NCBI GenBank assembly: GCA_041891055.1
Contig: CP169074.1
Coordinates: forward strand, 1,824,001-1,888,000
Direction of reading: 5' to 3'
Length of the DNA stretch: 64,000 nt
From: Halorutilales archaeon Cl-col2-1
GTDB lineage: Archaea; Halobacteriota; Halobacteria; Halobacteriales; Afararchaeaceae
Shown piece by piece: positions 1,146 to 28,049 of the stretch. The notes beneath the pieces are model-generated. The model did no database searches, had not been told where the DNA came from, and saw only the letters and a list, made by a program, of their open reading frames with translations. Every line of letters begins with the position of its first letter. Within the stretch, counting starts at the first letter, position 1. The position numbers and the translations under genes were made by a program.

Positions 1146-1193
1146 TCTCCAGAACTTGTTCTGGATGGCACGTCAATCGAAGATTGACATACG
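1146..1193 (+). repeat. double-hairpin mini-insertion unit (48 nt)
   Basis: TCCAGAAC-TT-GTTCTGGA, linker TGGCAC, GTCAATC-GAA-GATTGAC, ends ATACG; GTCTC repeated at 1145 and 1193. Confidence 0.8.
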
Positions 1194-1244
1194 TCTCAGA
1201 TAGTGAACTACCCCACCCTACTCGCTCACGGCTAACGCCGTTCG

Positions 1245-1293
1245 TCTCAAAATCTACGAGTTTGAGGGCTCGCTAATCGGAGATTGGCGAACG
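1245..1293 (+). repeat. double-hairpin unit (49 nt)
   Basis: CTCAAAATC-TAC-GAGTTTGAG GGCT CGCTAATC-GGA-GATTGGCG AACG; CG on both sides; removal restores GCCGTTCGCTCCTTGAGGGTG. Confidence 0.85.
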
Positions 1294-1306
1294 CTCCTTG
1301 AGGGTG

Positions 1307-1399
1307 TCGTCAGAAGTGGAGCTTCTGACTGCTCACAAATCGTAGATTTGTGATGTCTCTGAGGAGACCTCAGAGGCTCGTGAACTTTCGTTCACGATG
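1307..1399 (+). repeat. two tandem double-hairpin units (49+44 nt)
   Basis: Four hairpins (GTCAGAAG/CTTCTGAC, TCACAAATC-GTA-GATTTGTGA, CTCTGAGG-AGA-CCTCAGAG, TCGTGAAC/GTTCACGA); removal restores GAGGGTGGGGCTTCC, the partner arm of CCCCACCCT. Confidence 0.85.
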
Positions 1400-1420
1400 G
1401 GGCTTCCTGTTTCAACGACG

Positions 1421-1466
1421 TTGTCAGACTACGTCTGACAGCCTGTCGAGGTTACCTCGACAAACG
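1421..1466 (+). repeat. double-hairpin unit (46 nt) in tnpB 3' end
   Basis: TGTCAGAC-TAC-GTCTGACA GCC TGTCGAGG-TTA-CCTCGACA AACG; ACG on both sides. Confidence 0.85.
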
Positions 1467-2665
1467 CACTTTGCATCCACGACGGTGGACGACCCACCAG
1501 TCGCGGACGTAGGGAGTGCAGTCTCCGCAGGCGTGACTTCGGCGTGTCCCACGCCTAACTCTGAAAGACCGCGTTGTAGCACGTTGTAGGCGGCGTTCTC
1601 GTCGCGGTCGGTCTCGAACCCACAGGTCGGGCAGGAATGTTCGCGCACCCACAGTTCTTTCTCAACCTCAACCCCGCACTCGGCACACTCTTGGGTCGTG
1701 CCCTCGGGTTCGACTTTCACGAAGTGCGTGTCCTCGCGGTCGCACTTGTATTCGAGGAAGTCGATGAACGTCCGCCACGACGCCGACGCTCTGTTGCGAC
1801 TATTCGACGGCAGTTGCATCATCTCGTGAACGTCAAGGTCTTCCACGGCTACGAGGTCGTACTCACGAGCGTAGTACGCTGAGAGTTTGTGCAGGAAGTC
1901 GCGACGCTTCCGTACAATACGAGCGTGGATGCGGGTCACGCGGCGGCGTTGCTCGTGCCAGTTCTTCGACCCCTTCACCTTGCGACTCAGCGCTCGTTGC
2001 TCGCGTTCGAGCCGTTCGTACTCGTCTTCGAGGTTGAGACTTCCGACCATCGTGCTGTCGGTGTCGTGAGCGTACTTGATGATGCCCACGTCGATACCAA
2101 CCATATCCTCGCGGTCAACCTCATCCAGAGCGGGTTTCTCGGACGCGCCGTCTTCGGTTTCGATGCCGAAGGTGGCGTACCACTCACCCGTTTTCTCTTG
2201 TTTGACCGTGACCTGTTTCACGCGGGCGTCGTCGGGGATGTCGCGGTGGAGGTGTATCGGCATCTCACCAATCTTGGAAAGGGAAAGCACGGTCTGGTCA
2301 CTCGTGTTCTTGAGTTCGAAACCAGACTGGTTGTAGGTGAGGCTCCGATACTCTCGCGGACTCTTCCACTTGAGCATCCCAACCTTGTGCCCATTCTCCT
2401 TCTTTTCTTTGAGGCGGTCGAGGTTGTCGCTGACGCGGCGGGCAACCATTTGCAACACTTTCGAGTACACGTCGGTGAGGTCGTCCCACCAATCTTTCAG
2501 GTCGGGAAGCATATTCTGCATCGCGGTGTACGATAGGTACTCGTCCGTGTTGCGGAGTTCGTACAAGTAGTGGTTGTAGAGTTGCCTACAGGCATCTATA
2601 TGCCGTTCTAGTTCAGATTGAACGGCTTCGTCGGGGTCGATGCGATATCTGTAGTTGTAGTTCAT
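1424..2665 (-). CDS. tnpB: RNA-guided endonuclease TnpB
   Basis: N-terminal YRYRIDP HTH; RuvC GIDVG / VEDL / DRDENAA; Zn finger CAEC..CPTC. Confidence 0.95.
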   Translation of the reverse strand: MNYNYRYRIDPDEAVQSELERHIDACRQLYNHYLYELRNTDEYLSYTAMQNMLPDLKDWWDDLTDVYSKVLQMVARRVSDNLDRLKEKKENGHKVGMLKWKSPREYRSLTYNQSGFELKNTSDQTVLSLSKIGEMPIHLHRDIPDDARVKQVTVKQEKTGEWYATFGIETEDGASEKPALDEVDREDMVGIDVGIIKYAHDTDSTMVGSLNLEDEYERLEREQRALSRKVKGSKNWHEQRRRVTRIHARIVRKRRDFLHKLSAYYAREYDLVAVEDLDVHEMMQLPSNSRNRASASWRTFIDFLEYKCDREDTHFVKVEPEGTTQECAECGVEVEKELWVREHSCPTCGFETDRDENAAYNVLQRGLSELGVGHAEVTPAETALPTSATGGSSTVVDAKCVCRGNLDRLSDVV

Positions 2666-2669
2666 CGTG

Positions 2670-2828
2670 TTACTCGTCTTGGTCGTCGGTTTCGTCGGGG
2701 TCGCTGACGCGGATGACTTTCACGTCTGCGCCGCGCCAGTCTTTGGGAACTGTAACGTGGGCACTCCCGCCGAACTCCTTCGCTTCACGGTCAATGATTT
2801 CTTCGCCTTCTAGTTCGAATGTGCCCAT
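2670..2828 (-). CDS. DUF2080-type transposase-associated small protein (52 aa)
   Basis: Read by hand: MGTFELEGEEIIDREAKEFGGSAHVTVPKDWRGADVKVIRVSDP..., directly upstream of tnpB. Confidence 0.85.
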   Translation of the reverse strand: MGTFELEGEEIIDREAKEFGGSAHVTVPKDWRGADVKVIRVSDPDETDDQDE

Positions 2829-2892
2829 ACACAAATATATATTGGGCATATATTATATGTTTCGGTGGAGAATGACGATAGCTTACGGCTGT

Positions 2893-2942
2893 TGCAAGAT
2901 CTACGATCTTGCTATCCACAAATTCGGAGAATTTGTGACTGT
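2893..2942. repeat. double-hairpin unit (50 nt)
   Basis: GCAAGATC-TAC-GATCTTGC and CACAAATTC-GGA-GAATTTGTG; CTGT repeated at 2889 and 2939. Confidence 0.8.
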
Positions 2943-2959
2943 ATCCCCGACCTACTGCG

Positions 2960-3118
2960 TATGAAAATCGAAGATTTACTTGTGCTAGAAAACTCTACGA
3001 GTTTTCTGCATCACAGAAATCTCTGATTTCTGAAGACCCGTGAATCTTAGATTCACGGACGTCCTCAGAACGCGAAGCGTTCTGATGTGCGAACGAGACG
3101 CGAAGCGTCTCGTCAACG
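2960..3118 (+). repeat. array of three tandem double-hairpin units (51, 51, 57 nt)
   Basis: Six hairpins, e.g. AGAAAACTC-TAC-GAGTTTTCT, CAGAAATC-TCT-GATTTCTG, CCGTGAATC-TTA-GATTCACGG, TCAGAACGC-GAA-GCGTTCTGA, ACGAGACGC-GAA-GCGTCTCGT. Confidence 0.85.
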
Positions 3119-3149
3119 CTACTCACTCGCTTCGCTCGTTGTGTTGCCG

Positions 3150-3251
3150 TCCGAAAATCTTCGATTTTCGTGATCTCGGAAATCTACGATTTCCGACGGT
3201 ACGCGAATCCTTGATTCGCTCGATCACGAGAGAGCGAAGCTCTCTCGAACG
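3150..3251 (+). repeat. two tandem double-hairpin units (50+52 nt)
   Basis: CGAAAATC-TTC-GATTTTCG, TCGGAAATC-TAC-GATTTCCGA, GCGAATC-CTT-GATTCGC, CGAGAGAGC-GAA-GCTCTCTCG. Confidence 0.85.
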
Positions 3252-3297
3252 ACTCCTTAAGGACGGGGACTTAGCCTGTAAGAGTGAAAATCAGAAG

Positions 3298-4359
3298 CTA
3301 CGCCAGGTTCCCCACGACGTTCTCTATCACGTCGACTGCGTTCCTGAACTCGGAGATCTCTATGTGTTCGTCGGGGGTGTGGTCAAGGTTCGAGTCGCCG
3401 GGTCCGTAGGTCACCATCGGACAGTCCCACGACTCGGCGAAGACGTTCATGTCACTCGTCCCCGTCTTGACCGAGAGACCCATGTCGCCGTCCTCGTCAC
3501 GTATCGACCGCGTAAAGGCACGCACGACGGGGTTCGATCTGTCAGCCATAACGGGCTCCGTCGACTCTCCGAAGTAGAGGTCGCCGTCTCCGACGTGTTC
3601 CCTGACTTCGCTCTTGAGCTCGTCGACAGAGTGGCTCGGGGGTATACGTATGTTGCCACGGAGCTCCGACCTGAGTTCGAAGCCGTCGGAGTCGGACTCT
3701 ATGTTGGTGGGCTTAGCCTGTAAACTCCGGAAGCCGTCCTCGTCGTCGGCGACTGTCTTGACGGCGTTCCAGAAGTCTATGACGTCCTCTATCGCATTAA
3801 CACCCGGACGTGCTGTATGTATAACCTCCCCGGTGACACGGTAACGCAGACGGAGTATGCCACGGTATCCGAGTGTGACCGTGTCCCAGCCCGACGGCTC
3901 GCCGTTTATGAGGAACTCGGGCTCTTCGCGGTTCTGTGACAGGTACCGCGCTCCGCGTCCCGACTTCTCCTCCTCGACGACCGCCGCGACGGTGATACGT
4001 CTGTCCGTATCAGTCTCGGCGTGGCGCGCCGCTCCGAGTATCATCGAGGAGAGTGGACCCTTGGCATCGACAGTCCCGCGTCCGTACATCTTACCACCCT
4101 CTATGCTCACGGGAATCTCTCCCGGAACTGTGTCCATGTGGCTCGTGAGGAGTATCTCGTCGGAACTCTCGTCTTCTGTGTTTCCGACACTCGCTATTAC
4201 GTTTCCTACCGAGTCAGTCTCGACCTCGAACCCCATCTCGGGAAGCTCTTCGAGTAGGTAGTCACGTGCCTCGCCCTCGTTCTCTGACGGGCTGTACCTC
4301 TCTACGAATCCCTTGAAGAACTCAATCTCCTCGTCGGAAGATAATGAGACGGATGTCAT
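3298..4359 (-). CDS. lysK: [LysW]-lysine/ornithine hydrolase (M20)
   Basis: [36 protein letters not shown]; cluster context. Confidence 0.92.
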
Positions 4360-4374
4360 CTTCTTGTATTTATA

Positions 4375-5544
4375 TTACAGAACTTCGTCGATCGTCTCGA
4401 CTACCCTGTCGACGTGTTCTTCCTCGACTGTAAGGGGCGGAAGGAACCGTATCACGTTGACACCCGCCGAGAGTGCGAGTATGCCGTTCTTCGCAAGCTG
4501 AGACAGGTACCGTCCGCTTCTTCCTCTGACCTGGACGCCGACCATCAGACCCTTCCCACGTACATCGACTATCCTGTCTGAGTCGAGTCCTTCTATCCCC
4601 GAGGTGAGACGTTCCCCCATCTTCTTCGCGTTCTCGGCGAGGTCGTTCTCGACTATGTAGTCGAGAGACGCACGTGCCGCCGCCGATGTCACGGGGTTTC
4701 CACAGTAGGTTCCGCCGTGGCTTCCCTTCGGTATCTCTGCCATCTCTTCTGTGTAGACGACCGCGCTTATCGGAGTGCCTCCCCCAAGAGACTTCGCCGT
4801 CGTGAGAGCGTCGGGGGTGACGTCGTAATGCTCGTGGCTCCAGATCTCACCCGTCCTTCCGAGACCCGCCTGTATCTCGTCGAAGACGAGGTAAGCGCCG
4901 TGGTCATCACACAGGTCACGCGCCGCTTCTAAGTAGTCCTCGTTGGCGGGGTATATTCCCCCCTCGCCCTGTATGGGTTCGAGGAGTACCATCGCAGTCT
5001 CGTCGTCGACAGTCTCCTTGAGGTCGTCTACGTCGTTGTAAGACGAGAACTCGAACTCGGGGACGACGGGCTCGAAGGGCTCCCTGTACTTCGACTTCCA
5101 CGTCGCCGATATAGAGCCGTAAGTACGTCCGTGGAAACCTCTCTTTGCGGCGACTACCTTCCGGCTGTCGTCGTCAGTCGACCCCCTCGCGAACTTGATA
5201 GCAGTCTCGTTCGCCTCGGTTCCTGCGTTCGTGAGGAAGACCTTGTCGAGAGCCTCGGGTGTGATCTCGACGAGACGTTCCATCAGCTTTCCTCTCTCGG
5301 GGGTGGCGTACGACGCCTGTGCGTAGGTGAATTTCTCAGCCTGTTCTTTTATCGCATCGACTACCTCGGGGTTCGAGTGTCCGACCGCCATCACTCCGTA
5401 CGACGCTCCGAAGTCGAGGTACTCGTTCCCGTCGTGGTCGTAGACGTAGACGCCGTCACCCGACTCCACGGTTATGGGCTTCTTCGAGAAGACTTCCTCG
5501 TACCTCTTTTCCCTCTGAATTATGTCCTGGCTGTCCTCAGTCAT
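4375..5544 (-). CDS. lysJ: [LysW]-semialdehyde transaminase (class III PLP)
   Basis: FHGRT, EPIQGEGG, DEIQAGLGRTG, TAKSLGGG. Confidence 0.92.
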   Translation of the reverse strand: MTEDSQDIIQREKRYEEVFSKKPITVESGDGVYVYDHDGNEYLDFGASYGVMAVGHSNPEVVDAIKEQAEKFTYAQASYATPERGKLMERLVEITPEALDKVFLTNAGTEANETAIKFARGSTDDDSRKVVAAKRGFHGRTYGSISATWKSKYREPFEPVVPEFEFSSYNDVDDLKETVDDETAMVLLEPIQGEGGIYPANEDYLEAARDLCDDHGAYLVFDEIQAGLGRTGEIWSHEHYDVTPDALTTAKSLGGGTPISAVVYTEEMAEIPKGSHGGTYCGNPVTSAAARASLDYIVENDLAENAKKMGERLTSGIEGLDSDRIVDVRGKGLMVGVQVRGRSGRYLSQLAKNGILALSAGVNVIRFLPPLTVEEEHVDRVVETIDEVL

Positions 5545-6349
5545 TCTTATTAGTGAATACAGTTCCGTTTCCTTCGAGTGCTTGAGTCACGGGTGACTTT
5601 ACGTTCGCCGACGCGAATACGACTTCGGTCGCTCCCTTGTCGAGAGCCTCACGCGCCGCCATGACCTTCTTCTTCATCTTGCCCTCGGCGTACTTCTCTA
5701 TGACGTCGTCTATCTCGTCGTAGCCGACCTTCTCGATTAAGCTGTCTTCGTCGTCGGGGTCACGCAGAAGACCCGGGACGTCGGAAAGTATGGCGAGACG
5801 GCTTCCGAGTGCTCCCGCGACTGCCGCTGCCGACCGGTCGGCGTCTGTGTTGACAGCCGTACCCTCGTACGAGATCATGGGCACCGAGACTACTGGGGTG
5901 TAGCCGGCGTCGAGATGCATAGAGAGGAGTTCGTCGTTGACCTTCTCTATCTTGCCCGAGTGATCCCCTCTCATGACCTTCTTCCTGCCGTCTTCCTTGA
6001 CTATCACGGTGTCCTTTCTCTCTCCCTCTAGGAGACGTCCGTCGACTCCCGAGAGACCGACTGCGTCGACACCGCGTGACTGGAGCCCCTCGACGAGGTC
6101 GGTGTTTACGAGACCGGGCATAGCCATCTTGAAGATCTCCATCGAGTCCTCGTCTGTGAAACGTCCCTTGACTCCCGACGCGCTCGTGACATACGTCGGC
6201 TCGGTTCCGAGCCTCTCGTGGAGCCCGTCGACTACACCGCTTCCACCGTGGACGACTACGAAGCTGTCTTCTTCTATACCGGCTAAGTCGTCGAGGACGT
6301 TCTCGGGATCTACTCCGCTCGTGCCGCCTATCTTGACTACGAATGTCAT
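5537..6349 (-). CDS. lysZ: [LysW]-aminoadipate/glutamate kinase
   Basis: VVKIGG, VHGG, NTDADR, GKMKKK. Confidence 0.92.
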   Translation of the reverse strand: MTFVVKIGGTSGVDPENVLDDLAGIEEDSFVVVHGGSGVVDGLHERLGTEPTYVTSASGVKGRFTDEDSMEIFKMAMPGLVNTDLVEGLQSRGVDAVGLSGVDGRLLEGERKDTVIVKEDGRKKVMRGDHSGKIEKVNDELLSMHLDAGYTPVVSVPMISYEGTAVNTDADRSAAAVAGALGSRLAILSDVPGLLRDPDDEDSLIEKVGYDEIDDVIEKYAEGKMKKKVMAAREALDKGATEVVFASANVKSPVTQALEGNGTVFTNKND

Positions 6350-8224: not shown

Positions 8225-8228
8225 CTAA

Positions 8229-8402
8229 CTACTCTCCCCAGTCCTCTTCGAGTTCGGGTGCCTCTATGAGGTCGAGAGGATCTGTGTCTGCGACCTCAAG
8301 CTCAGCACCGCACTCGGTACAGTCTATTATCTCTCCGCGCTCTACTTCCCATTCTGGCTCTACCTCTGCTCCACATACGGGGCATTCTGCTTTCTGTGTC
8401 AT
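8229..8402 (-). CDS. lysW: amino-group carrier protein LysW
   Basis: CPVC...CTEC and C-terminal EEDWGE. Confidence 0.95.
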   Translation of the reverse strand: MTQKAECPVCGAEVEPEWEVERGEIIDCTECGAELEVADTDPLDLIEAPELEEDWGE

Positions 8403-8419
8403 TCTTGTCACCTGTATAT

Positions 8420-8830: not shown

Positions 8831-8869
8831 CGTCTCTTACAGACGAGACGTCGGCTTAGAACATGAAGC

Positions 8870-12154: not shown

Positions 12155-12616
12155 ATGTCAGACTCCTCGAAGTCGAACGAAAAGGACTGGGAGAACGGTC
12201 TCAAGAGTGAGCCCGTGACGACGTATGTGAGTTACGAGACGAAGGAGATCTGGAAACAACACGCCGAAAACCTCGATACCACACTCAGCCGGTTCGTCGA
12301 GATGATGGTAAACGCGGGAAGATCGATGTACGACGACACCGCTCCTGAGGGATACGAGGACTCGGATCTCGTCTCGGCGAACCGTGAGATTCAGGCTCTC
12401 AGAGACCGGATCGAGGAGATAGAGTCACATCCTGAGTCGGCTGATCCCATAGATGTCTATACGTCTCTCGGCGAGGGCTATGTCACCGTAGACGAGATAT
12501 CCGAGTCGATGGAGTACTCCGAGTCGGAGGTCTACGAGGCACTTCAAACTCTTCTCGACGAGGAGGTCGTCGAGTACGACCCCATGAGGAACGCATACAG
12601 GAGGACGGATGCGTAG
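12155..12616 (+). CDS. DUF5805-like protein (RHH + wHTH) upstream of xerA
   Basis: VTTYVS..K..W..HA...SRFV.MV.AGR; overlaps the integrase start. Confidence 0.8.
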   Translation: MSDSSKSNEKDWENGLKSEPVTTYVSYETKEIWKQHAENLDTTLSRFVEMMVNAGRSMYDDTAPEGYEDSDLVSANREIQALRDRIEEIESHPESADPIDVYTSLGEGYVTVDEISESMEYSESEVYEALQTLLDEEVVEYDPMRNAYRRTDA

Positions 12617-13721
12617 GATAGGTGCTCAAGACCCACTCGACGAGGTCGAGGATCTCGAAGATCACGACTTCATCTCTTACTTCATCGAGGACATGGAAGC
12701 GTATGGCAAATCTTCCTCAACGCTCTACGAGTACGAACGTGTTCTGCGTGACTTCGACGACTTCACTGACACCCACCACGCGCGCGCCTCGAGACGTGAC
12801 TGCATGGGCTATATCTCCGACCTCCGTAGTCGGGGACTCTCAGCGTCGACGGTCTCGACCTATGCCTCCTATCTCCACAGATTCTACTCGTACCTCGTCA
12901 AGGCGGACGAGTTCCCCCACTCTAACAACCCGATGGCTCTCGTCACTGAGGAGATGAGCGAGGGAATAGACAAGAATCCCCAGAGACGTGAACTCTCGGT
13001 CACCGACGTCACTGAGTTCCTCAAGACTGTGAATCACCCGAGGGACAGATGTATACTCGTCACCCTCTTCAAGACGGGGATGCGCGCGGGTGAGCTTTCG
13101 AACCTCAAACTCGAAGACATCTCACTGACTACTGACCTCGACGATGAGTTCGGTCTCGGTGGAAACGCGCGTCTGAGTCGGAACTCACTCCTCGTCGTTA
13201 GCGACAGAGACGGAAACAAACGTCTGCGTGACACTCTGATCCCCATCGACGACGAGCTCAGGAAAGAGCTCGTGAGATGGCTGCGTGTGCGTCCCGAGAA
13301 TGGTAGTTCTCGTGGGCGCGTGAATCAGAAGATTCACGAACGTCTCGAAGCGGAAGCTTCGATGGCTCGGAAATCAGAGATTTCCGAACGTCCCGAGACT
13401 GACTCGGACGCCGTCTTCGTCTCTCTCAGCAGAGCGTCCGAGACGGGAAGTCTCAGCCCTGAGGCGGTCTCTTCCCTGATGAGGAAGTACACTCAGCCTT
13501 ACGGCTGGTGGGAGGAGGGAAGAGGTCTTGAGGAAAACGTCACCCCGCATTACTGCCGCCATTTCTTCACGACCCATCTCAGAGAGGCTTCGGGAGACGA
13601 CGCCCTCGTCAAGTACCTAAGAGGCGATGTCGGCGGAGACGTGATCGAGACCTACACCCATCAGTGGGGTGACAACGTCCGTGAGAGCTATGAGAAGTAC
13701 ATATACCGTCTCGTTTCCTGA
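12609..13721 (+). CDS. xerA: tyrosine recombinase XerA-like, with a 33-aa in-frame repeat insertion
   Basis: TGMRAGE, GNKR, PHYCRH, RGD, catalytic Y in ETYTH. Confidence 0.9.
   Translation: MRRIGAQDPLDEVEDLEDHDFISYFIEDMEAYGKSSSTLYEYERVLRDFDDFTDTHHARASRRDCMGYISDLRSRGLSASTVSTYASYLHRFYSYLVKADEFPHSNNPMALVTEEMSEGIDKNPQRRELSVTDVTEFLKTVNHPRDRCILVTLFKTGMRAGELSNLKLEDISLTTDLDDEFGLGGNARLSRNSLLVVSDRDGNKRLRDTLIPIDDELRKELVRWLRVRPENGSSRGRVNQKIHERLEAEASMARKSEISERPETDSDAVFVSLSRASETGSLSPEAVSSLMRKYTQPYGWWEEGRGLEENVTPHYCRHFFTTHLREASGDDALVKYLRGDVGGDVIETYTHQWGDNVRESYEKYIYRLVS
13292..13390 (+). repeat. two tandem double-hairpin units (51+48 nt) in frame in xerA
   Basis: CGAGAA/TTCTCG, CGTGAATC/GATTCACG, TCGAAGC/GCTTCGA, TCGGAAATC-AGA-GATTTCCGA; CGTCCCGAGA at 13290 and 13389. 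Confidence 0.9.
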
Positions 13722-14075: not shown

Positions 14076-14153
14076 GGTTCCGGTGTATAAAGACTCGGGT
14101 GACTTCTACCTTTCGTCCGTATATTTATGTTCTGCCGACACGAGTTACAGCCG

Positions 14154-16319
14154 ATGGGTAATCTCTCGAAGCTCTTCTCGCCTTCACGTGTCGCAGTAAT
14201 TGGAGCGACCGATAGGGAGGGGTCTGTCGGACGTGTGGTGACACAGAACCTCGTCTCGGGGTTCGAGGGAGAGGTGATCGCTGTCAATCCCAACAGGGAC
14301 GAGGTTCTCGGACTTCCGACTTACACCGACGTCGGCTCCGTTCCGGGTGAGATAGACCTGGGCGTCGTAATAGTGCCGGCTCCCGTGGTTCTGGAGGTTC
14401 TCGAAGAGATGGGGAAAGCTGGCGTCACGAACGCCGTCGTCATAACCGCGGGGTTCTCGGAGGCGGGCGACGAGGGGAAGGCGAGAGAGGAGAGGCTGAA
14501 GGAGATCGCCGACGAGTACGGAATCAGCCTCGTAGGTCCCAACTGTATAGGAATAGTAAGTAGTGATTCGGGTCTCAACACGACCTTCACGACCGTGAAA
14601 TACTCGAAGGGAGCCACGTCTTTCATGAGCCAGTCGGGGGCTCTCATAGGTGCAGTCCTCGAATGGGCACCCTCTCACAACATGGGTTTCAACCAAGTCG
14701 TCTCTCTCGGCAACAAGGCTGTACTCGACGAGACCGACTTCATCGAGGACTGGAGTGACGACCCCGACACCGACGTAGTGATGGCATATCTCGAAAGCAT
14801 TGAGGACGGGAGACGTTTCATCAAGAAGACACGTGAGGCTGTGACTGAGACTCCCGTAGTCGCTCTCAAGGCGGGTAGGTCCGAGAAAGGATCGAGGGCG
14901 GCGTCTTCACACACGGGGGCTCTCGCTGGGAGCGACGAGGCGTACGACTCCGCCTTCAGACAGTCAGGCGTCATAAGAGCTGAGACACTTCTCGAACTCT
15001 TCGACTACAGTGACACGCTCGCTGATCAGCCGGTTCCCGAGAAGGACGGCTTAGCAGTGGTCACCAACGGTGGAGGACCCGGGGTCATAGCTACCGACGC
15101 GGTCAGTGACTCGATCGTCTCGTTCGCGGATCTGAGCCACGAGACCGTCGACTACCTCGAAGACCGTCTCCCCGAATCGGCTGTCGTTGAGAATCCTCTC
15201 GACATAATAGGAGACGCAGACGTCGACAGGCTGTCTGACTCACTCGATGCAGTTCTTGGAGATCCTGACGTCGGCGGTGCTCTCGTCATAGTCACTCCGA
15301 ACGGAGTCCTCGACTACAGAGAAGCCGTCGATCCGATAGAGGAAATCCAGAGACGTCACTCGAAGCCCGTAGTGACTTGTATGATGGGCTCCAACGACGA
15401 GACGAGCCAGAGGCTGAGTCAAGCAAACCTACCCGACTTCTTCGATCCTGAGAGGGCGGTCGGGAGCTACGAGGCTCTTGAGAGGTACAGACGTATAAGA
15501 CAGAGATCCCGGGAAGAGAGACACGTCACGGAGTTCGACGTCGACGAGGGGAGGGCACGCGGGATAATCCGAGAAGCCGTCGAAGAGGGTCGTAACCGTC
15601 TCGGCGTCGAGTCGATGGAGATACTCGATGCCTACGGGATACCCACTCCCGACGGCACTGTCGTCGAGACAGCCGACGAAGCCGACGAGGCGGCACGCAG
15701 TATCGACTCCGAAACCGGTACTGTCGTCCTCAAGATAGTCAGCCCCGACATAAGCCACAAGACAGACGTCGGCGGTGTCAGAACGCGTGTCTCCCCAGAC
15801 GACGTCAGAGACGTCTTCTCGGAGATGGTCGAGGAGGTTCGAGACAGACGTCCCGAAGCCGAGATAGAAGGTATTCTCGTACAGGAATCTGTCGACGTCT
15901 CGAAGGGCGAGGAGGTCATAGTCGGTGCGAGAAGCGATCCTCAGTTCGGTCATCTCCTCGTGTTCGGTCTCGGAGGTGTATTCGTCGAGGTCTTCAAGGA
16001 CGTCTCTTTCCGTGTCCCACCTGTCACTCAGCGAGAGGCGGAGGAGATGACCCGCGAGATAGAGTCGGCACCTCTCCTCCGAGGTGCGAGAGGACGTGAC
16101 CCCCTCGATACCGACGGTGTCACTGAAGTCATACAGAGGCTGTCGCAGATGGTGACCGAGATAGATGCGATCGAAGAAGTCGAGGCTAATCCTGTCTTCG
16201 TGGGAACTGGCGGCGTTCAGAAATCTTCTATTTCTGATTCTGAGGACGTCAACCGAAGATTGACGGATGTCGTTGCGCTTGACTTCCGTATGACGGTCGA
16301 CGAGAGCCGGGTCGGTTAA
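14154..16319 (+). CDS. acdAB: ADP-forming acyl-CoA synthetase (fused alpha/beta)
   Basis: VAVIGA, GPNCIG, SQSGA, SHTGALAG, NPLDIIGDA, HKTDVGGV, EANP. Confidence 0.92.
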   Translation: MGNLSKLFSPSRVAVIGATDREGSVGRVVTQNLVSGFEGEVIAVNPNRDEVLGLPTYTDVGSVPGEIDLGVVIVPAPVVLEVLEEMGKAGVTNAVVITAGFSEAGDEGKAREERLKEIADEYGISLVGPNCIGIVSSDSGLNTTFTTVKYSKGATSFMSQSGALIGAVLEWAPSHNMGFNQVVSLGNKAVLDETDFIEDWSDDPDTDVVMAYLESIEDGRRFIKKTREAVTETPVVALKAGRSEKGSRAASSHTGALAGSDEAYDSAFRQSGVIRAETLLELFDYSDTLADQPVPEKDGLAVVTNGGGPGVIATDAVSDSIVSFADLSHETVDYLEDRLPESAVVENPLDIIGDADVDRLSDSLDAVLGDPDVGGALVIVTPNGVLDYREAVDPIEEIQRRHSKPVVTCMMGSNDETSQRLSQANLPDFFDPERAVGSYEALERYRRIRQRSREERHVTEFDVDEGRARGIIREAVEEGRNRLGVESMEILDAYGIPTPDGTVVETADEADEAARSIDSETGTVVLKIVSPDISHKTDVGGVRTRVSPDDVRDVFSEMVEEVRDRRPEAEIEGILVQESVDVSKGEEVIVGARSDPQFGHLLVFGLGGVFVEVFKDVSFRVPPVTQREAEEMTREIESAPLLRGARGRDPLDTDGVTEVIQRLSQMVTEIDAIEEVEANPVFVGTGGVQKSSISDSEDVNRRLTDVVALDFRMTVDESRVG
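16216..16269 (+). repeat. double-hairpin unit (54 nt) in frame in acdAB
   Basis: TCAGAAAT/ATTTCTGA plus CGTCAACC-GAA-GATTGACG; removal restores NPVFVGTGGVVALD. Confidence 0.85.
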
Positions 16320-19460: not shown

Positions 19461-19557
19461 TCTGTAAATCTTTGATTTACAGGCACGCGAATCGAAGATT
19501 CGCGAACGTCTCAAACTCTACGAGTTTGAGGGCTCGGAAATCAGAGATTTCCGAACG
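19461..19557 (+). repeat. two tandem double-hairpin units (48+49 nt) in the IS right end
   Basis: CTGTAAATC-TTT-GATTTACAG, CGCGAATC-GAA-GATTCGCG, CTCAAACTC-TAC-GAGTTTGAG, TCGGAAATC-AGA-GATTTCCGA. Confidence 0.9.
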
Positions 19558-20899
19558 CTCGTTGAGAATGGGGCTTGTCCATGTACTCAACCTCTAACCT
19601 CTCGGTGGAGGAACTACCCTCACTCGGTTTCAGTGTACCGGACTTAAGGGCAAGTTGACACGTTGCCCGTCCGTCCTGTGACTTTTGCACACGACGGACG
19701 TGTTGCGAATCGTTAGATTCGCATACGTCTGCAAAGCTTTGCTTTGTAACATAACGAAGACCGACATTCTTAGAAGCGTTGTAGTCTGCGTCTACCGAAT
19801 ACCCACACTCTCGACACTCAAAGTCGTGTTTCGTCCTGCGGTTACTTCGGTCGGTGTGTCCACAGCGAGAACAAGTCTGACTCGTGTACTCTGGATTCAC
19901 CGACTCGACAGAAACGCCGTACTCTTCGGCTTTGTACTCCACGAACGCGACGAACTGATTGAACGCCCACTGCTGAAACTCTTTGTTGTTCGAGATACGC
20001 TCACGGATGCCGTCAAGCTCCTCGAACACAATAGTAGAACAGTCGTAGCGTACAGCCTCTTCTACGATTTCGTTAGCCCACTTGTGGTACTTCTGATTAC
20101 TCCACTGGCTGAAACGGTCGCCCATACGTTCTATGACCTCGTGAGCGCGACGCGAGCCGTTTCGTTGGAGTGACGCACGCCTACTCTCGTATTCGTCACG
20201 TTCGTGGTTGATATGGTCGCTTGAACCTACGAACCGCCCCGTAGAGGTGACGGCGAAGCTACCTGTGCTGTTCAGGTCTACACCGAGAACCGTTCGCAAA
20301 TCTTCAATCTGCGAGCCATCGAAGCTCCCGCTTCGAGACGTTCCGCTCTCGGTTTCTCCTACGTCCTCTTCTTTCACGACTGAGATATGCAGGTAGTAGT
20401 CGCCGCCCCTGTGGTGTAGCGTCGCCTCTTTCCGTCCCCACTCTTCGGAAAGGTACTCTGTCTGGGGGTTGTCGCCCGTTTCGTCAATCACGAAGTCGGC
20501 TTGTACACGCCCGTCCACGGTTGCGAGAGTACAGCCTTCGTCGGTATACGTGACGGTTCGGTAGTCGTAGGCGACGAACCAACTCTGGAACGTGGGTTTG
20601 GTGGCTTGTTCGCCTTCTTTCCACCGGTTGATTACCTGTTGTAGGCTGTCTACGGCGTAGTCACGCGCCTTCTGTATCAGTCCGGTGTTGAGTCCGGTCT
20701 GTTCCTTGATGTCATCGTAGGTCTGTTCGTGTAGCCACGTCTTGCGCGTGTCTATGTGACCGCCGTCAGTTCGGTTGTTCCATGCGTAGTCTACGGTGTA
20801 CTGACATGCTTCTCGGAACGCCCTGAACGTCTCTCGTAGGCGTTCCTCGTCGGAGCCGTCAACGTCAAGCTTGACCTGTACAGTACGCCGTAGCTCCAT
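19541..20899 (-). CDS. tnpB: RNA-guided endonuclease TnpB with two in-frame repeat insertions
   Basis: RTVQVKL start; GVDLN, FEEL, TSQTCSRCG..CRECG, DADYNAS. Confidence 0.93.
   Translation of the reverse strand: MELRRTVQVKLDVDGSDEERLRETFRAFREACQYTVDYAWNNRTDGGHIDTRKTWLHEQTYDDIKEQTGLNTGLIQKARDYAVDSLQQVINRWKEGEQATKPTFQSWFVAYDYRTVTYTDEGCTLATVDGRVQADFVIDETGDNPQTEYLSEEWGRKEATLHHRGGDYYLHISVVKEEDVGETESGTSRSGSFDGSQIEDLRTVLGVDLNSTGSFAVTSTGRFVGSSDHINHERDEYESRRASLQRNGSRRAHEVIERMGDRFSQWSNQKYHKWANEIVEEAVRYDCSTIVFEELDGIRERISNNKEFQQWAFNQFVAFVEYKAEEYGVSVESVNPEYTSQTCSRCGHTDRSNRRTKHDFECRECGYSVDADYNASKNVGLRYVTKQSFADVCESNDSQHVRRVQKSQDGRATCQLALKSGTLKPSEGSSSTERLEVEYMDKPHSQRAFGNL
19701..19751. repeat. double-hairpin unit (51 nt) in frame in tnpB
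   Basis: TGCGAATC-GTTA-GATTCGCA and TGCAAAGC-TTT-GCTTTGTA; adds VTKQSFADVCESNDSQH. Confidence 0.85.
20291..20338 (-). repeat. double-hairpin unit (48 nt) in frame in tnpB
   Basis: Minus strand TCTCGAAGCGGGAGCTTCGATGGCTCGCAGATTGAAGATTTGCGAACG; CGTTC at 20291 and 20339. Confidence 0.9.
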
Positions 20900-20994
20900 G
20901 CTTATATATTATATCTATACTTACTTAGTTCTTGTGGGGTAATTTACCCACTCAAAGCACTAAGGCTTAAGTAGTGGTGGTCTATATCACCACC

Positions 20995-21138
20995 ATGGCA
21001 GAAGTCAGAGTACAAAATCCAGACATACACGAAGAGAAGACAGCAGATGGAAAGGGACGTGTATATTTGGGCAAAGATTATGAGAACAGGAAGGTCAGAA
21101 TAGTGGTGGAAGTAGTTGACGACGAACCGGAAGAGTAG
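20995..21138 (+). CDS. small AbrB/DUF2080-like IS-associated protein (47 aa)
   Basis: Read by hand: MAEVRVQNPDIHEEKTADGKGRVYLGKDYENRKVRIVVEV... Confidence 0.7.
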   Translation: MAEVRVQNPDIHEEKTADGKGRVYLGKDYENRKVRIVVEVVDDEPEE

Positions 21139-21152
21139 GAGTTGACGGGCTG

Positions 21153-21224
21153 TCACAAAATCTCCGATCTTGTTGGCTCGCTAATCTATGATTAGCGGGC
21201 ACGTAAATCTTAGATTTACGAACG
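21153..21224 (+). repeat. triple-hairpin unit (72 nt) in the IS left end
   Basis: ACAAAATC-TCC-GATCTTGT, CGCTAATC-TAT-GATTAGCG, CGTAAATC-TTA-GATTTACG joined by GGCT/GGCA linkers, ends AACG. Confidence 0.85.
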
Positions 21225-21290
21225 GTTCGTAGAGGGTGGAGTCTTAGCCCTGCCAAAAGATAAAATACTCTTACCGAGTATATGGAATAG

Positions 21291-22160: not shown

Positions 22161-22161
22161 T

Positions 22162-23955: not shown

Positions 23956-25015
23956 ACAGGTACTCACGGTCACTCGACGCGAACTCTCGTCGCTGAGGAG
24001 CGAGAAGACAGTCGTCCTCGCCCTCATGATACAGCTCTTCATAGCCGCTTTCTCGTCTTTCCTCGTCGTGGGTCTCGTCTCGATGTACAGCCCCGACGCC
24101 GTCGGGGACAGCGGCTTCACGGTCGACTACGGGGTCACAGGGGATGCTGCCGACGACGTAGCGCGTGCGATAGACGACGAGGACGGCTGGAGGGTCTCGG
24201 AGTACGAAAGCTACGAGGCGGCTATGTCGGAGTTCAGTGGGGGTGGTCTCGACGTAGTACTCGACACCTCACGTCTCGAAAACGGACGTATCGAAATAAC
24301 GGCTGTCGTCCCCGACTCGAGTATACGTACGACCCTCATCGTCGTACAGGCGAAACAGGCTCTCCAGACCGTCGAGAGGAGCCAGAGAGCCGAGATGAGT
24401 TCGACCCTCGAACGTCAGCCTGTTCCCCTTCCTGAGAAGGTCGGGTCGAGCCCCTACTTCGGCTTCACCTACACGGTTCTAATACCACTCCTGATGTTTC
24501 TCCCAGTCTTCATAAGCGGGAGCATCTCGTCCGACTCTATCACGGAGGAGTTCGAGAGGGGAACATTCGATCTACTTAGGACGGCTCCGATCTCCGAGAA
24601 CGAGATAATCGACGGCAAGATGGCGGCTATGGCTGTCCTCTCGCCCGTACAGGCGGCGGTCTGGCTCGGACTCCTGCGTTTCAACGGCACTGCGGTAGAA
24701 CGTCCCTTCCTACTCGTCGCCGTCGTCGCCGCCTTCTCCGTGATAACCGTGACCGCGGGCTCGACGGTCGCGCTCCGGTTTAGAGACAGGAAGAAGGCAC
24801 AGTTCATCTACTCCGTGAGCCTCATGCTTATATTCGGCGCGCTCCATCTCGACCTCGGCGTCATACCCGAGTCACCCACCAACACCGTCGCGAAGCTAGC
24901 TATAGGTAGTTCGACCCCCGAGACGTATCTCATGGTCGCCGTCTACGCCGTTCTCGCGGTCGTGGGCTATCTCGCCGTCAGACGCGGGTTCGTCCCCTCG
25001 CTCTCGGATTCGTAA
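23945..25015 (+). CDS. ABC-2 permease
   Basis: RRELSSL.., DSITEEFERGT..LL..P, TM segments. Confidence 0.88.
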   Translation: MGFKQVLTVTRRELSSLRSEKTVVLALMIQLFIAAFSSFLVVGLVSMYSPDAVGDSGFTVDYGVTGDAADDVARAIDDEDGWRVSEYESYEAAMSEFSGGGLDVVLDTSRLENGRIEITAVVPDSSIRTTLIVVQAKQALQTVERSQRAEMSSTLERQPVPLPEKVGSSPYFGFTYTVLIPLLMFLPVFISGSISSDSITEEFERGTFDLLRTAPISENEIIDGKMAAMAVLSPVQAAVWLGLLRFNGTAVERPFLLVAVVAAFSVITVTAGSTVALRFRDRKKAQFIYSVSLMLIFGALHLDLGVIPESPTNTVAKLAIGSSTPETYLMVAVYAVLAVVGYLAVRRGFVPSLSDS

Positions 25016-25058
25016 CGTAACAAATAGATACTTATCCGAGGAGGACGACCTACGGAGT

Positions 25059-25238
25059 ATGCAGGAAACCTGGGTAAACGTCGAATGTAACAGCTGTGGA
25101 GAGACTTGGGAGGTAAAGGTCTCGGAGCTCCCGGTCGACAACGGAACGTTCAGGTGTAAGGAGTGTGGCAACGAGTCTCCCGTCAAGGAGTTCCTCAAGA
25201 CTGAGAAGGATCTCGAAGTCTACGACGAACTCAAGTAG
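25059..25238 (+). CDS. small zinc-finger protein (59 aa)
   Basis: Read by hand: MQETWVNVECNSCGETW...FRCKECG. Confidence 0.8.
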   Translation: MQETWVNVECNSCGETWEVKVSELPVDNGTFRCKECGNESPVKEFLKTEKDLEVYDELK

Positions 25239-25250
25239 TACCGACTCATA

Positions 25251-25883
25251 TCACACCGCGTCGACTGCGGTCTCAAGTAGGTCAAGTGCACGTACGGCGT
25301 CGTCTCTCTCTACGACTATTATCGTCTCGGTGTAACACGAGGTGATGTCGACTATGTTTATCTCCTCCGACGTGAAACGTGATATCATGTACGACAGAAC
25401 ACCCGAGACATCGGTGATCTCCTCGGGCGACTCGACGACGATACCCGTGAGGTCGTGTCTCTCCTCGACTACCTCGCCCTCGCCGTCCTCGATACCCTCC
25501 CTGACCTCGTCGGCGTAGGTGTCGTCTGTGACTACCGTGGTGTAACTCCTCCCACGAACGAGATGGAAGAAGCCCGACTCTATACCTAAGTCTCCCACAC
25601 GTGTCGCCGTGAAAGAGACGACGTTTCCCCTCAGAGAGACCCTCGAACCGCCGAGCACCTCCCTTACCCTCTCGACGTTCTCGACACCGTCTTCGAGCTC
25701 GTCGCCGTACCTTCTCAGTGCCGTCGTCACCGCCTCTATGTTGACGTCTCCGCCGACCTCCTCTTCGACCTCGGGCTTTATCTTCCTCGCTAAAGCGCGG
25801 TAGTTGACGACGCCCTCACGGAGACAGTCGAGCATATACGGATAACGAGATACGACATCGCGGCAGTCCTGTGCGAGTGACAT
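25251..25883 (-). CDS. ACT-domain protein (probable regulator)
   Basis: GVVNYRALAR..AVTTALRRY; C-terminal GVL..INIVDITSCYTE. Confidence 0.85.
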   Translation of the reverse strand: MSLAQDCRDVVSRYPYMLDCLREGVVNYRALARKIKPEVEEEVGGDVNIEAVTTALRRYGDELEDGVENVERVREVLGGSRVSLRGNVVSFTATRVGDLGIESGFFHLVRGRSYTTVVTDDTYADEVREGIEDGEGEVVEERHDLTGIVVESPEEITDVSGVLSYMISRFTSEEINIVDITSCYTETIIVVERDDAVRALDLLETAVDAV

Positions 25884-25989
25884 ACATGTAGTACGTCATA
25901 ACAGACTAAAATACTGTGGTTTTGAACTATATAAGTCATTAACGACCCAAATACAAAGACTTTAGTTCTTTTACGTCTTAGACTGAGGT

Positions 25990-27243
25990 ATGACAGAGAC
26001 AGATACACGTAAAGCAGTCCTCGCCTTCTCGGGAGGTCTCGACACGAGCGTCTGTGTTCCCCTTCTCAAGGAGGAGTACGGATACGACGAGGTCATTCCC
26101 GTAGTCGTCGACGTCGGACAGCCCGAGGAGGACATGGAGGAAGCCTACGAACGCGCTGAGGAGCTTGACCTCGATCTCCGTGTCGTCGAGGCGAGCGAGG
26201 AGTACGCCGAGGAGTACATACTCCCCCTCATAAAGGCAAACGGAAGCTACGAGGGTTACCCGATGGGCACGAGCATAGCGCGTCCCGTCATAGCGCGCCA
26301 CTGTCTCGACATAGCCCTCGAAGAGGACGCCGACGGTCTCGCACACGGCTGTACGGGAAAGGGCAACGACCAGCTCAGATTCGAGGCGGTCTGGCGTGAG
26401 TCCGACCTGGAGATAATTGCTCCGATGCGTGAGAAGAACCTCACTCGTGAGTGGGAAATAGAGTACGCACAGGATCACGGCATGAGCGTCCGAGCGACGA
26501 AGGAGGAGCCGTGGTCGATAGACTCGAACCTCTGGAGCCGTTCGATAGAGGGAGGAGACCTCGAAAACCCGTCGAACGAGCCTCCTGAGGAGATCTTCGA
26601 GTGGACGGCGTCTCCCGTCGATGCCCCCGACGAACCCGAGGTAGTCGAGATAGAGTTCGAGGAGGGCAGACCCGTCGCTCTAAACGTCGTCGAGGGAACC
26701 TCGACTGGCTCTCAGACTCCGTCTGGGAATGGAAACGAGATGGATCTTCTCGAACTCATAAGGGAGCTACACGACGTCGCGGGGAAACACGGCGTCGGAA
26801 GAAACGACATGATGGAGGATCGCGTCTTAGGTCTCAAGGTGCGCGAGGTCTACGAGCACCCTGCGGCGACAGTCCTCCTCAAGGCACACGAGGATCTCGA
26901 GAGCCTCGTCCTCACACGTTCACAGCTCAAGTTCAAGTCGGGGGTCGAGGAAGAATGGAGCGAACTCGCCTACAAGGGACTCGTCAACGAGCCTCTCTAC
27001 GACGACCTCAACGCCTTCATAGAGTCGACACAGGAGAACGTCACCGGAACCGTGAGGGTCAAGCTCCACAAGGGAACCGCACGCGTCGTCGGACGTGAGA
27101 GTCCCTACGGTCTCTACGGCGAGGAGATGGTCTCGTTCGACACGGGAAGCGTGACACAGGACATAGACCAGACCGACGCCGTCGGCTTCTCGAAGTACCA
27201 CGGCATACAGGGACGGTTCAGGAAGAAGTTCAAGGATCAGTAG
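25990..27243 (+). CDS. argG: argininosuccinate synthase with a 15-aa in-frame insertion
   Basis: AFSGGLDTS, HGCTGKGNDQLRF, SIDSNLWSRSIEGG, REVYEHP. Confidence 0.96.
   Translation: MTETDTRKAVLAFSGGLDTSVCVPLLKEEYGYDEVIPVVVDVGQPEEDMEEAYERAEELDLDLRVVEASEEYAEEYILPLIKANGSYEGYPMGTSIARPVIARHCLDIALEEDADGLAHGCTGKGNDQLRFEAVWRESDLEIIAPMREKNLTREWEIEYAQDHGMSVRATKEEPWSIDSNLWSRSIEGGDLENPSNEPPEEIFEWTASPVDAPDEPEVVEIEFEEGRPVALNVVEGTSTGSQTPSGNGNEMDLLELIRELHDVAGKHGVGRNDMMEDRVLGLKVREVYEHPAATVLLKAHEDLESLVLTRSQLKFKSGVEEEWSELAYKGLVNEPLYDDLNAFIESTQENVTGTVRVKLHKGTARVVGRESPYGLYGEEMVSFDTGSVTQDIDQTDAVGFSKYHGIQGRFRKKFKDQ
26687..26731 (+). repeat. double-hairpin unit (45 nt) in frame in argG
   Basis: GTCGAGG-GAA-CCTCGAC TGGCT CTCAGAC-TCC-GTCTGGG AATG; removal restores PVALNGNEM. 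Confidence 0.85.
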
Positions 27244-27344
27244 TCACCGCCCTTCGTAGAGGCGGTCTCGTAGATCCAGTAACGTAACTGCTTTGCGCAA
27301 ACCCACCCAAAGGCACAATATTCTGTGTATACATACTTTTCTGT

Positions 27345-27575
27345 ATGCCCAGCATCACGGTCAACGTAGACGCCGACCTCAAAGAGAGAATGGAAGAGCA
27401 TCCCGAGATCAACTGGAGTGAGGTAACACGCCAAGCCATACAGGAGAAAGTAGAGACACTTGAAGTAATGGACGAACTCACAAGTGAGAGCGAGCTTACC
27501 GAAACTGACGTTCAGGAGATTGCCGAGAAGATCAACGAATCCGGACGTAATCGCGTCGACAAGGATTTAGCCTAG
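27345..27575 (+). CDS. antitoxin (VapB-like, RHH)
   Basis: MPSITVNVDADLKERM..HPEINWSEV.RQAI, upstream of a PIN gene. Confidence 0.88.
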   Translation: MPSITVNVDADLKERMEEHPEINWSEVTRQAIQEKVETLEVMDELTSESELTETDVQEIAEKINESGRNRVDKDLA

Positions 27576-27584
27576 ACTCGAAAG

Positions 27585-28049
27585 ATGAAGCTGGTTATCG
27601 ACGCCAACGTCTTCAGATCTATGATCTGAAGGCTCATCAATCTCCGATTGAGGAACGTTGTTATCTCTGCACTTATCGCCGATTCAAAAACACGTGAACT
27701 CATCGTCACACTCGAACCCGATCTCCTGACACCTGAGTTTGTCCACGACGAAGTCGAGAATTACGAAGACATGATTGCAGTGAAGTCGGGCATGGAACCG
27801 GATCGAGTAGAACAGTTCATGGATCTCCTGTTCCAGTACATCGAGACGGCTCCTGCTGACGAATTCTATCCGTCGATTGAGACAGCGAAAGAAGCAATCG
27901 GATATACCGACCCGGACGATGTGCTCTACTTAGCCTGCGCGATCGAAAGAAATGCTGCTATCTGGAGCGATGACTCTGACTTCGACAGACAGGACTTAGT
28001 CGACACTTACTCGACGAGTGACGTAATCAACTCGTTTGATACAGTCTAA
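27585..28049 (+). pseudogene. vapC: PIN-domain toxin VapC interrupted by a 48-nt unit carrying an in-frame TGA
   Basis: MKLVIDAN[insert; TGA 27627-27629]VVISALI...DPDD..YLACA..IWSDDSDF. Confidence 0.85.
27610..27657 (+). repeat. double-hairpin unit (48 nt) in vapC
   Basis: CTTCAGATC-TAT-GATCTGAAG GCTCA TCAATC-TCC-GATTGA GGAACG; AACGT at 27606 and 27654. Confidence 0.9.

Follow-up and report, generated by a model that had tools for sequence, protein, structure and literature searches.

What are the pieces of DNA of about 50 nucleotides, each folding into two adjacent hairpins, that recur at 21 places in a stretch of 64,000 nucleotides of the archaeon Halorutilales archaeon Cl-col2-1 (assembly GCA_041891055.1, contig CP169074.1, positions 1,824,001 to 1,888,000; hereafter, the window), do they move, and by what means? 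The earlier note on this DNA had described them as a family of non-autonomous mobile units resembling the REP/REPIN system. We find that the unit proper runs from a T to an A over about 41-55 nt and is made of two perfect 7-9-bp hairpins with C(RNA)G triloops (R and N in IUPAC code), and we are nearly certain that the units are real and mobile.

The source genome (G000; 2.06 Mb, 55% GC), which holds the window on its main contig (C1) and has a second contig (C2), has its relatives and protein homologs among Halobacteria. It was compared with a same-genus sister genome (G001; ~1.9 Mb), which is 96-97% identical to the window region over most of its length, with further Halobacteria, with five genomes of one distant, methane-metabolizing archaeal family outside Halobacteria (f25; including G186), and with contigs of four public metagenome runs from three studies (X1 to X4). 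X2 and X3 share G001-like differences and thus may not be independent of G001; X1 is closer to the window.

Structure of the unit

Two adjacent hairpins were present at all 21 listed places, confirming the family that the earlier note had claimed. Perfect hairpin pairs (stems of at least 7 bp, centers 19-32 nt apart) numbered 167 on C1, with overlapping pairs within arrays counted singly, vs. 5 in one order-3 Markov copy of C1, and 26 more were found on C2 with the same settings. With relaxed stems, C1 held 149 hairpin chains, those with an even number of hairpins predominating: 108 of two hairpins (some of which are background), 19 of four and 16 of three. A covariance model (R1) recovered 19 of the 21 window units at E<=0.02, scores that are not independent because R1 was partly built from such units, and matched the units at 1356 and 3062 partly or not at all.

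When 21 units sharing one geometry were aligned without gaps, the two helices had changed on both sides at 15 of 17 pairs (the rows being preselected for perfect stems), with one-sided changes in 2 of 357 cells and almost no wobble pairs. Stem sequences thus differ between copies while pairing is kept, as the earlier note had it. Its further claim that fold rather than sequence is conserved stands for the fold; the sequence is not free, as copies repeatedly show an AATC-NNN-GATT core and a C-G pair that closes the loop. The loops are also uniform: 248 of 309 paired hairpins had C-closed triloops, 231 of which read RNA on one strand, vs. 54 of 99 unpaired C-closed triloops, a set that includes decayed units. 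GNA triloops are described in PMC10085684 as thermodynamically stable DNA loops closed by a sheared G:A pair, and the match of C(RNA)G to these loops suggests that DNA, not ribonucleic acid, is the folded form. A scan against Rfam at the gathering score gave no match in the window, with three chance-level hits in 1000-3400, and hence a known Rfam RNA family was rejected as the identity of the units.

Based on Pfam, the window encodes two IS605-type TnpB proteins, a tyrosine integrase, an acyl-CoA synthetase and ArgG. Its units are placed as follows:

1146..1193, plus strand: 48-nt unit, just beyond the right end of the first TnpB element
1245..1293, plus strand: 49-nt unit within the right-end palindrome of the TnpB element
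1307..1399, plus strand: two tandem units (49 + 44 nt) in the same TnpB right end, with TG at every junction
1419..1464, minus strand: 46-nt unit at the 3' end of tnpB, providing the stop codon of the open reading frame at 1424-2665
1424..2665, minus strand: TnpB gene, IS605/IS1341-type (PF01385, PF07282, PF12323)
2893..2941, plus strand: 49-nt unit, TG...TG, in the left end of the TnpB element
2960..3061, plus strand: nested pair, a 54-nt twin hairpin within the linker of a 48-nt unit
3062..3118, plus strand: 57-nt unit with longer stems
3150..3251, plus strand: two units (49 + 52 nt), the first of the symmetric type (see below), probably nested
13292..13390, plus strand: tandem pair of units (51 + 48 = 99 nt), in frame within the tyrosine-integrase gene 12609-13721 (PF00589)
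16216..16269, no strand assigned: 54-nt degenerate unit, in frame near the C-terminus of the acyl-CoA synthetase gene 14127-16319; also in G001
19461..19557, plus strand: tandem pair of units (48 + 49 nt) at the right end of the second TnpB element; the first is missing from G001
19541..20899, minus strand: second TnpB gene (PF07282), with two units in frame
19699..19749, minus strand: 51-nt unit, in frame in the second tnpB; the G001 copy is identical
20291..20338, minus strand: 48-nt unit, in frame in the second tnpB; three paralogous tnpB genes have near-identical copies
21153..21224, plus strand: 72-nt three-hairpin composite; the nest that G001 carries at this site is larger and different
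26687..26731, plus strand: 45-nt unit, in frame in argG (25990-27243), adding 15 residues
27610..27657, plus strand: 48-nt unit introducing a stop codon in the PIN-domain gene 27585-28049, which is intact in G001

Some entries of the earlier note need correcting: the units it placed at 1421 and 20291 are on the minus strand (1419-1464 and 20291-20338), those at 16216 and 26687 are 54 and 45 nt long, and 2960/3011 and 3150/3200, listed as separate units, are nested rather than simple tandem copies (probably so for the latter). The two ends of the TnpB element around 1424..2665 together carry 11 units. The tyrosine-integrase gene has a helix-turn-helix gene upstream, and its frame remains open despite the 33-codon double insertion.

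Filled and empty alleles

The earlier note had also held that deleting a unit restores the host sequence, and orthologous loci in G001 provide such precise empty alleles: the 99 nt at 13292-13390 are missing there to the base, as are 48 nt each at 19461 and 27610. The units at 16216, 19509, 19701 and 26687 are present in both genomes. The entire region 1144-3280 (the first TnpB element) is missing from G001 as well. Further filled/empty pairs, in both directions and of 45-54 nt or near multiples, were found in 169 kb of G001 around its units, although several rows of this comparison are paralogs or array variants. Within G000 itself, comparison gave 19 filled/empty rows of 43-51 nt, array variants among them; for example, an empty paralog exists for the 44-nt type of the tandem pair at 1307..1399. 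In G001 paralogs, the outer unit of the nest at 2960..3061 occurs without its 54-nt insert. Public metagenome contigs showed the same alleles, with the 99-nt stretch skipped in X2, X3 and X4, a net 48 nt skipped at 27607 in X1, X2 and X3, and empty alleles at 19461. An assembly artifact was rejected since G001 likewise has the units at 19509, 19701 and 26687 and public genomes contain one type at 34 places.

At one of these sites the direction of change is apparent: the unit at 27610 breaks a PIN-domain gene that is intact in G001, so the filled state is the derived one. In argG, homologs lack the 15 residues encoded at 26687, and the insert was present in 20 of 43 ArgG proteins, for which four changes are needed on the tree (in one large haloarchaeal clade, in the lineage of the window, and in two isolated rows that sit among relatives without the insert). 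This recurrence would be explained by repeated insertion at one site or by the spread of a filled allele through conversion. More generally, copies of 45, 48, 51 or 54 nt persist in frame within essential genes. The f25 site tested for an empty allele showed a single-hairpin derivative in both relatives rather than an empty site.

Target duplication and a second, symmetric type

The dinucleotide that flanks a unit, which to the earlier note looked duplicated, is a real and variable 2-nt duplication in the main type (CG, TG, AG, CT, TA). The longest flanking direct repeat of isolated units exceeded that of flank-permuted units in G000 (3.09 vs. 2.55, n=43), G001 (3.44 vs. 2.77, n=25) and f25 (3.64 vs. 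2.74, n=28), a difference reached in 0 of 1000 permutations in each case; unit orientation was set by a simple rule in this test and a few rows are array junctions. Further, the end bases track the target within subfamilies: one has TG/TG at window 1307 vs. AG/AG at G001 L070:1976, and another has CG/CG vs. AG/AG (C1:979479) vs. TA/TA (C1:1205649), in each case matching the site; CT/CT ends were also found. As the terminal two bases follow the target, the unit proper is taken to be T...A. Pairing with the linker (G/A)C is possible for the last base of the target (G) in 19 of 21 rows and for the first base of the unit (T) in 17, with the G of column 2 pairing with the C of column 27 in 19 of the 21 aligned rows; this pairing is suggestive only, because the columns involved vary little.

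A second, symmetric type of 54 nt inserts between G and C without duplication and has short terminal inverted repeats. The earlier claim that terminal inverted repeats are absent applies to the main type and not to this one; inverted ends of the units measure only 1-4 bp. The symmetric type was found at 34 places in the public genome collection, every title being halobacterial, and its sites include IS (insertion sequence) end loops, intergenic repeats and in-frame positions in tnpA genes. Among the latter are IS200-type tnpA genes that carry the unit just upstream of the HUH motif (L084, L089 and plasmid hit H1).

Targets, nesting and shuffling

Units are concentrated around IS elements: of 125 strong chains, 42 are no farther than 500 bp from tnpB loci, which make up 3.1% of G000, and type-A units near tnpB are on the opposite strand in 14 of 17 cases, many of them inherited with the IS. 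Compared with background, reconstructed targets had more structure in G001 (p=0.006, n=18) and, marginally, among IS-linked sites of G000 (p=0.05, n=8). Units also insert beside and into one another, one left hairpin occurs paired with seven different right hairpins, and loops are found in both strand orientations on identical stems. At an orthologous start codon in f25 (L197:1500-1551 vs. L455 and L456), two relatives have a 25-nt chimeric single hairpin and G186 a 48-nt double one; that is, two hairpins collapsed to one through a 23-nt deletion between both hairpin cores.

Unit arrays of differing content also lie directly behind a tRNA-Glu gene in G000 (L019:7122-7400) and G001 (L057:4062-4320), and tRNA-end-like copies elsewhere likewise carry units. 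In genomes G043 and G045 (L105-L159), units were seen within intergenic composite repeats of a second class, which has many short GCGAAGC-type hairpins.

Distribution across archaea

A covariance-model scan, which the earlier note had proposed, showed the family to be widespread: R1 matched 125 of 150 Halobacteria genomes at E<=0.001, with only 39 candidates scored per genome and weak matches left uninspected, and 5 of 5 f25 genomes, three of which had 53-83 matches counting both strands. The sites inspected (24 and 41) were mostly clear twin hairpins. In a phylum scan at E<=1e-5, matches were found in 13 of 21 Halobacteria, 4 of 4 f25 and 1 of 125 other Halobacteriota. The f25 loci contain methyl-coenzyme M reductase genes and have a GC content of 31-47%; their units have the same cores, with bounds that are mostly ATG...ATG, the second ATG opening a frame of at least 158 codons in 5 of 24 units so bounded. 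A cluster of units lies between mcrB and mcrD in G186 (L200:1500-1625).

A metagenome pattern search gave three matches, and a search of a phage collection only two chance matches. Tandem arrays of a single 24-nt hairpin with the AATC-NNN-GATT core and the archaeal loop set were seen in contigs labeled as giant-virus metagenome-assembled genomes (L233, L241, L249, L251, L255, L268-L270, L274-L279 and L288).

Search for the mobilizing enzyme

The earlier note had suggested a non-autonomous unit moved in trans by an HUH/Y1 enzyme or by another one; the non-autonomous part stands, the HUH/Y1 part is not supported, and its alternative of a different enzyme is the better reading. Under the HUH explanation, the units would be minimal PATE-like passengers of the Y1 TnpA of IS200/IS605, excised as single-strand circles and pasted by this enzyme. 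The strong enrichment of units in IS605/TnpB ends and their strand bias next to tnpB would follow from it, G000 and G196 have an intact TnpA, the pairing of the G|T junction with the linker is reminiscent of guide pairing, and TnpA-REP is described as cleaving at a dinucleotide (PMC8266576). The only Y1 gene of G000 is an ordinary IS200-type IS605 TnpA beside tnpB (L001:1474-1878), in an element that carries units within its own end palindrome on one side. Nonetheless, we consider this explanation unlikely. IS605-type elements and PATEs, as characterized in PMC3119063, make no target duplication, whereas the ends of the units follow the target, and this is a stronger argument against TnpA than the lack of co-occurrence.

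As for the latter, Y1 genes were found in 86 of 125 unit-positive vs. 16 of 25 unit-negative Halobacteria (five of these 25 being inferred from genome lists), so that the association with tnpA/RAYT-like genes that the earlier note had envisaged was not seen. Y1 was also present in 44 of 125 other Halobacteriota, nearly all unit-free. Conversely, no Y1 match was found in G043 and G045, which are complete genomes with 33 and 25 unit matches counting both strands, and unit-rich G186 and G166 have broken remnants only (both genomes being 86-91% complete). Since kin are not independent and a mover may be lost later, such absences weaken rather than exclude TnpA. For RAYT, the available text of PMC6006769 reports archaea with IS200-type Y1 only, and no RAYT class gene flanked by repeats was found in G000. 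Y1 TnpA/RAYT was thus rejected as the dedicated mover, being neither necessary nor sufficient.

Other candidates fared no better. A query for Ssn-like GIY-YIG nucleases (a single query, taken beside an NTS-like repeat, with the family label being our own reading) matched 149 of 150 Halobacteria, with a single weak homolog (29-45% identity) per genome, and none of the 5 f25 genomes. None of the GIY-YIG loci inspected in 5 genomes was flanked by units, and the single small GIY-YIG gene of G000 is syntenic with that of G001 and likewise has no flanking units; an Ssn-type mover was rejected for these reasons. IS110 recombinases (0 of 5 genomes tested) and a shared serine recombinase (present in 2 of 5, with no resolvase-family match in G000, G043 and G186) were rejected on their distribution. 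The mover is therefore probably not TnpA, and the genome comparisons suggest that it is none of the four candidate types tested.

A model of movement and its alternatives

We favor, with a confidence that goes about halfway, the hypothesis that the units are non-autonomous DNA micro-elements moved as a folded strand of ~48 nt by a structure-specific enzyme acting in trans. Under this hypothesis, a small nuclease or recombinase that is structure-specific, and that works like SsnA or RAYT yet belongs to neither family, would recognize a folded single strand or a paired cruciform and excise or copy it. The very stable triloops would keep the freed ~48-mer folded and protected, and pairing with the linker (G/A)C would hold the left junction G|T. 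Insertion, as its observed outcome shows, takes place at a dinucleotide, mostly CG or TG, that ends up on both sides; a 2-nt staggered cut and fill-in or a matched 2-nt core would produce this. Preferred targets may be DNA that opens easily, i.e., the loops of IS605 end hairpins, other units and AT-rich start-codon regions. Likewise evident as an outcome, units insert in tandem and into one another, and subsequent deletions from linker to linker or between hairpin cores shuffle left and right hairpins, with loops flipping between strands and copies in IS ends also spreading passively with the IS.

It is important to note that several of our results weigh against this hypothesis. No direct-repeat excess was found in the set of other Halobacteria (2.40 vs. 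2.35, n=35), and together with the lack of duplication in the symmetric type this means that one mechanism may not cover both types. Some copies have unmatched ends, such as those at window 1146 (AG/CG), 19461 (CA/CG) and 16216 (CG/TG), and at C1:939007 (CT/CG), C1:256162 and C1:1161017, most mismatches being single transitions. The rows of the alignment were picked for perfect stems, so their covariation is partly circular and reveals diverse paired stems rather than providing an independent test. Folding as a circular dumbbell was equally good in 9% of 200 shuffles with random linkers, which is not significant, and the dumbbell circle was rejected as the favored fold. Targets outside IS elements were not more structured than background in G000 (p=0.16, n=19) and those of f25 were less so; a general target hairpin was therefore rejected, as it holds for IS-associated sites only. 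No gene lay between units or half-units in G000 (39 lone hairpins, 35 regions), and an autonomous parent of this kind was rejected for the regions examined. Neighbor comparisons likewise revealed no mover gene, with only TnpB and TnpA recurring in other genomes and none in f25. Finally, an empty allele by itself cannot separate gain from precise loss, and no excised circle or intermediate was seen in the contigs, which were searched in place of raw reads.

Alternatively, and in our judgment improbably, there may be no dedicated enzyme at all, with the hairpins being self-propagating by-products of replication and repair. That is, stable fragments of mini-hairpins would be caught at nicks through microhomology of 2-5 nt, template switching would keep the stems perfect and flip the loops, and filled alleles would spread through gene conversion in polyploid cells. 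The absence of a mover gene from every test agrees with this possibility, as do flanking direct repeats that range from 1 to 6 nt and more, as microhomology would give, the two loop orientations on identical stems, and the giant-virus-labeled arrays of single hairpins with the same core and loop set. Yeast GC42 and fungal mitochondrial double-hairpin elements (DHEs) are comparable and, in the relevant parts of PMC4478555 and PMC10085805, have no known mover. However, by-products would hardly be expected to keep a constant size and T...A ends across two archaeal classes, to use one argG site precisely and repeatedly, or to be distributed as patchily as the units are, with their near-absence outside Halobacteria and f25.

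Very unlikely, in our view, is that a DDE transposase or site-specific recombinase acting on double-stranded DNA moves the units as ultra-short MITEs (miniature transposable elements with inverted repeats) whose palindromes are binding sites rather than extruded hairpins, given that stem sequences change while pairing stays, that loops are selected for DNA-hairpin stability and that IS110 and resolvase-family genes are absent as described above (DDE families were not screened systematically), even though some DDE families typically make 2-nt duplications, serine recombinases and IS110 typically use 2-nt cores, DDE pseudogenes in G000 carry units, and the symmetric type has short terminal inverted repeats.

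Returning to the folded-strand hypothesis, its boldest form, which is speculative and which we regard as rather unlikely, is that the units are the smallest self-specifying prokaryotic mobile DNA: a strand of ~48 nt whose linker would pair with both its own junction and the target, served by a new enzyme class common to Halobacteria and f25, or by core repair alone. Such an element would home repeatedly, cross between classes, and have given core enzymes throughout the haloarchaea, ArgG among them, loops of 15-18 residues.

Relation to known repeat families and implications

We found no description of this twin-hairpin family in the open-access literature; the statements below reflect the available portions of the papers cited. 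The closest haloarchaeal relatives are the small mobile repeats (SMRs) of Haloquadratum walsbyi, i.e., SMR-A (HqIRS42, 43, 55) and SMR-B (HqIRS40, 41) (PMC3119063). Like the units, SMRs lack a transposase, show strain-specific insertions by a mechanism called enigmatic, and strongly prefer the near-terminal palindromes of IS605-type elements and PATEs (PMC3119063), a target preference also seen here. SMRs are 80-110 bp long, have prominent terminal inverted repeats, make no target duplication and are >95% identical to one another within each type (PMC3119063), whereas the main unit type is 43-57 nt long, duplicates 2 nt and is diverse. The symmetric 54-nt type shares the inverted ends and lack of duplication with SMRs and differs in length. 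A twin-hairpin fold is not described for SMRs (the word 'hairpin' does not occur in the text of PMC3119063 that was available). Nested or symmetric units may overlap with SMR-A, as the two are set apart by description only. PATEs and IS200/IS605 ends share subterminal hairpins, the lack of long inverted repeats and the genomic neighborhood with the units; PATEs, however, consist of IS ends fused together, have palindromes like those of the IS and make no duplication (PMC3119063), and the units invade them. The units do not show the PATE-type combination of no target duplication and a fixed 3' end, and reconstructed IS end palindromes are GC-rich with 4-6-nt loops, unlike unit stems (judged by eye).

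In architecture, the likeness to REP/REPIN that the earlier note had proposed is borne out, with two tagged hairpins in inverted orientation as in CGTC-REP dimers; a RAYT gene and the GTAG tag are what the likeness lacks. CGTC-REPs have a CGTC/TGTC tag 5' of an 8-9-bp stem, form inverted (often hetero-) dimers, have intragenic copies and no associated transposase (PMC3733652), and the unit consensus likewise starts with CGTC (alignment A3). In turn, CGTC-REPs are bacterial, with 4-5-nt loops, a CCA-type tail and dimers with a spacer (PMC3733652), whereas in the units both tails overlap within ~48 nt, the loops are triloops and filled/empty alleles were found. In REPINs, the doublet is the replicative unit, is non-autonomous and, in group 3, has short perfect palindromes (PMC3116915, PMC8266576). 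The same holds for the doublet here, as empty alleles drop two hairpins or multiples thereof and the chain counts agree; unlike in REPINs, each half folds by itself instead of joining the other in a single long hairpin, and many copies lie within coding sequence. In Neisseria, the GIY-YIG nuclease SsnA cuts the NTS/SRM repeat as single-stranded DNA, and copies of the repeat flank its genes (PMC11893778; archaea are not mentioned in the part consulted), and a repeat-flanked gene of this kind was not found here. DHEs and GC42 are also tiny two-hairpin or palindromic elements with presence/absence polymorphism, merger, shuffling, no known mover and, for GC42, 2-3-nt flanking repeats, but they are GC-rich and organellar (PMC10085805, PMC4478555), and no sequence relation was tested for or seen. 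What is new here is that the duplication tracks the target, that the family extends to f25, that the enzyme tests were negative and that insertion in argG recurred.

How transposase-free hairpin repeats such as SMRs, CGTC-REPs and mitochondrial DHEs move is a question posed in the cited papers, and the present family makes it testable by offering a 48-mer substrate, exact filled/empty alleles, a clear rule for the junctions and named haloarchaeal genera that carry copies. The units are also a source of in-frame peptide insertions in essential enzymes and of gene knock-outs (the PIN gene). In addition, they damage the ends of TnpB elements, where the guide RNA is expected to be encoded. Should the mover prove to be a new insertase of single-strand DNA that follows a 2-nt target rule, it would hold interest both for its mechanism and as a tool.

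Other differences between the window and G001

Three further differences from G001 were observed. An Lhr-type helicase gene with an intein and a LAGLIDADG domain (window 32063-36487, plus strand) contains 123 nt at ~33692-33815 that G001 is without. G001 has ~1.85 kb of additional AT-rich DNA directly after argG, missing at window 27231-27240. Lastly, ~1.2 kb of the window at 36482-37701, including the open reading frame at 36572-37687, is missing from G001.

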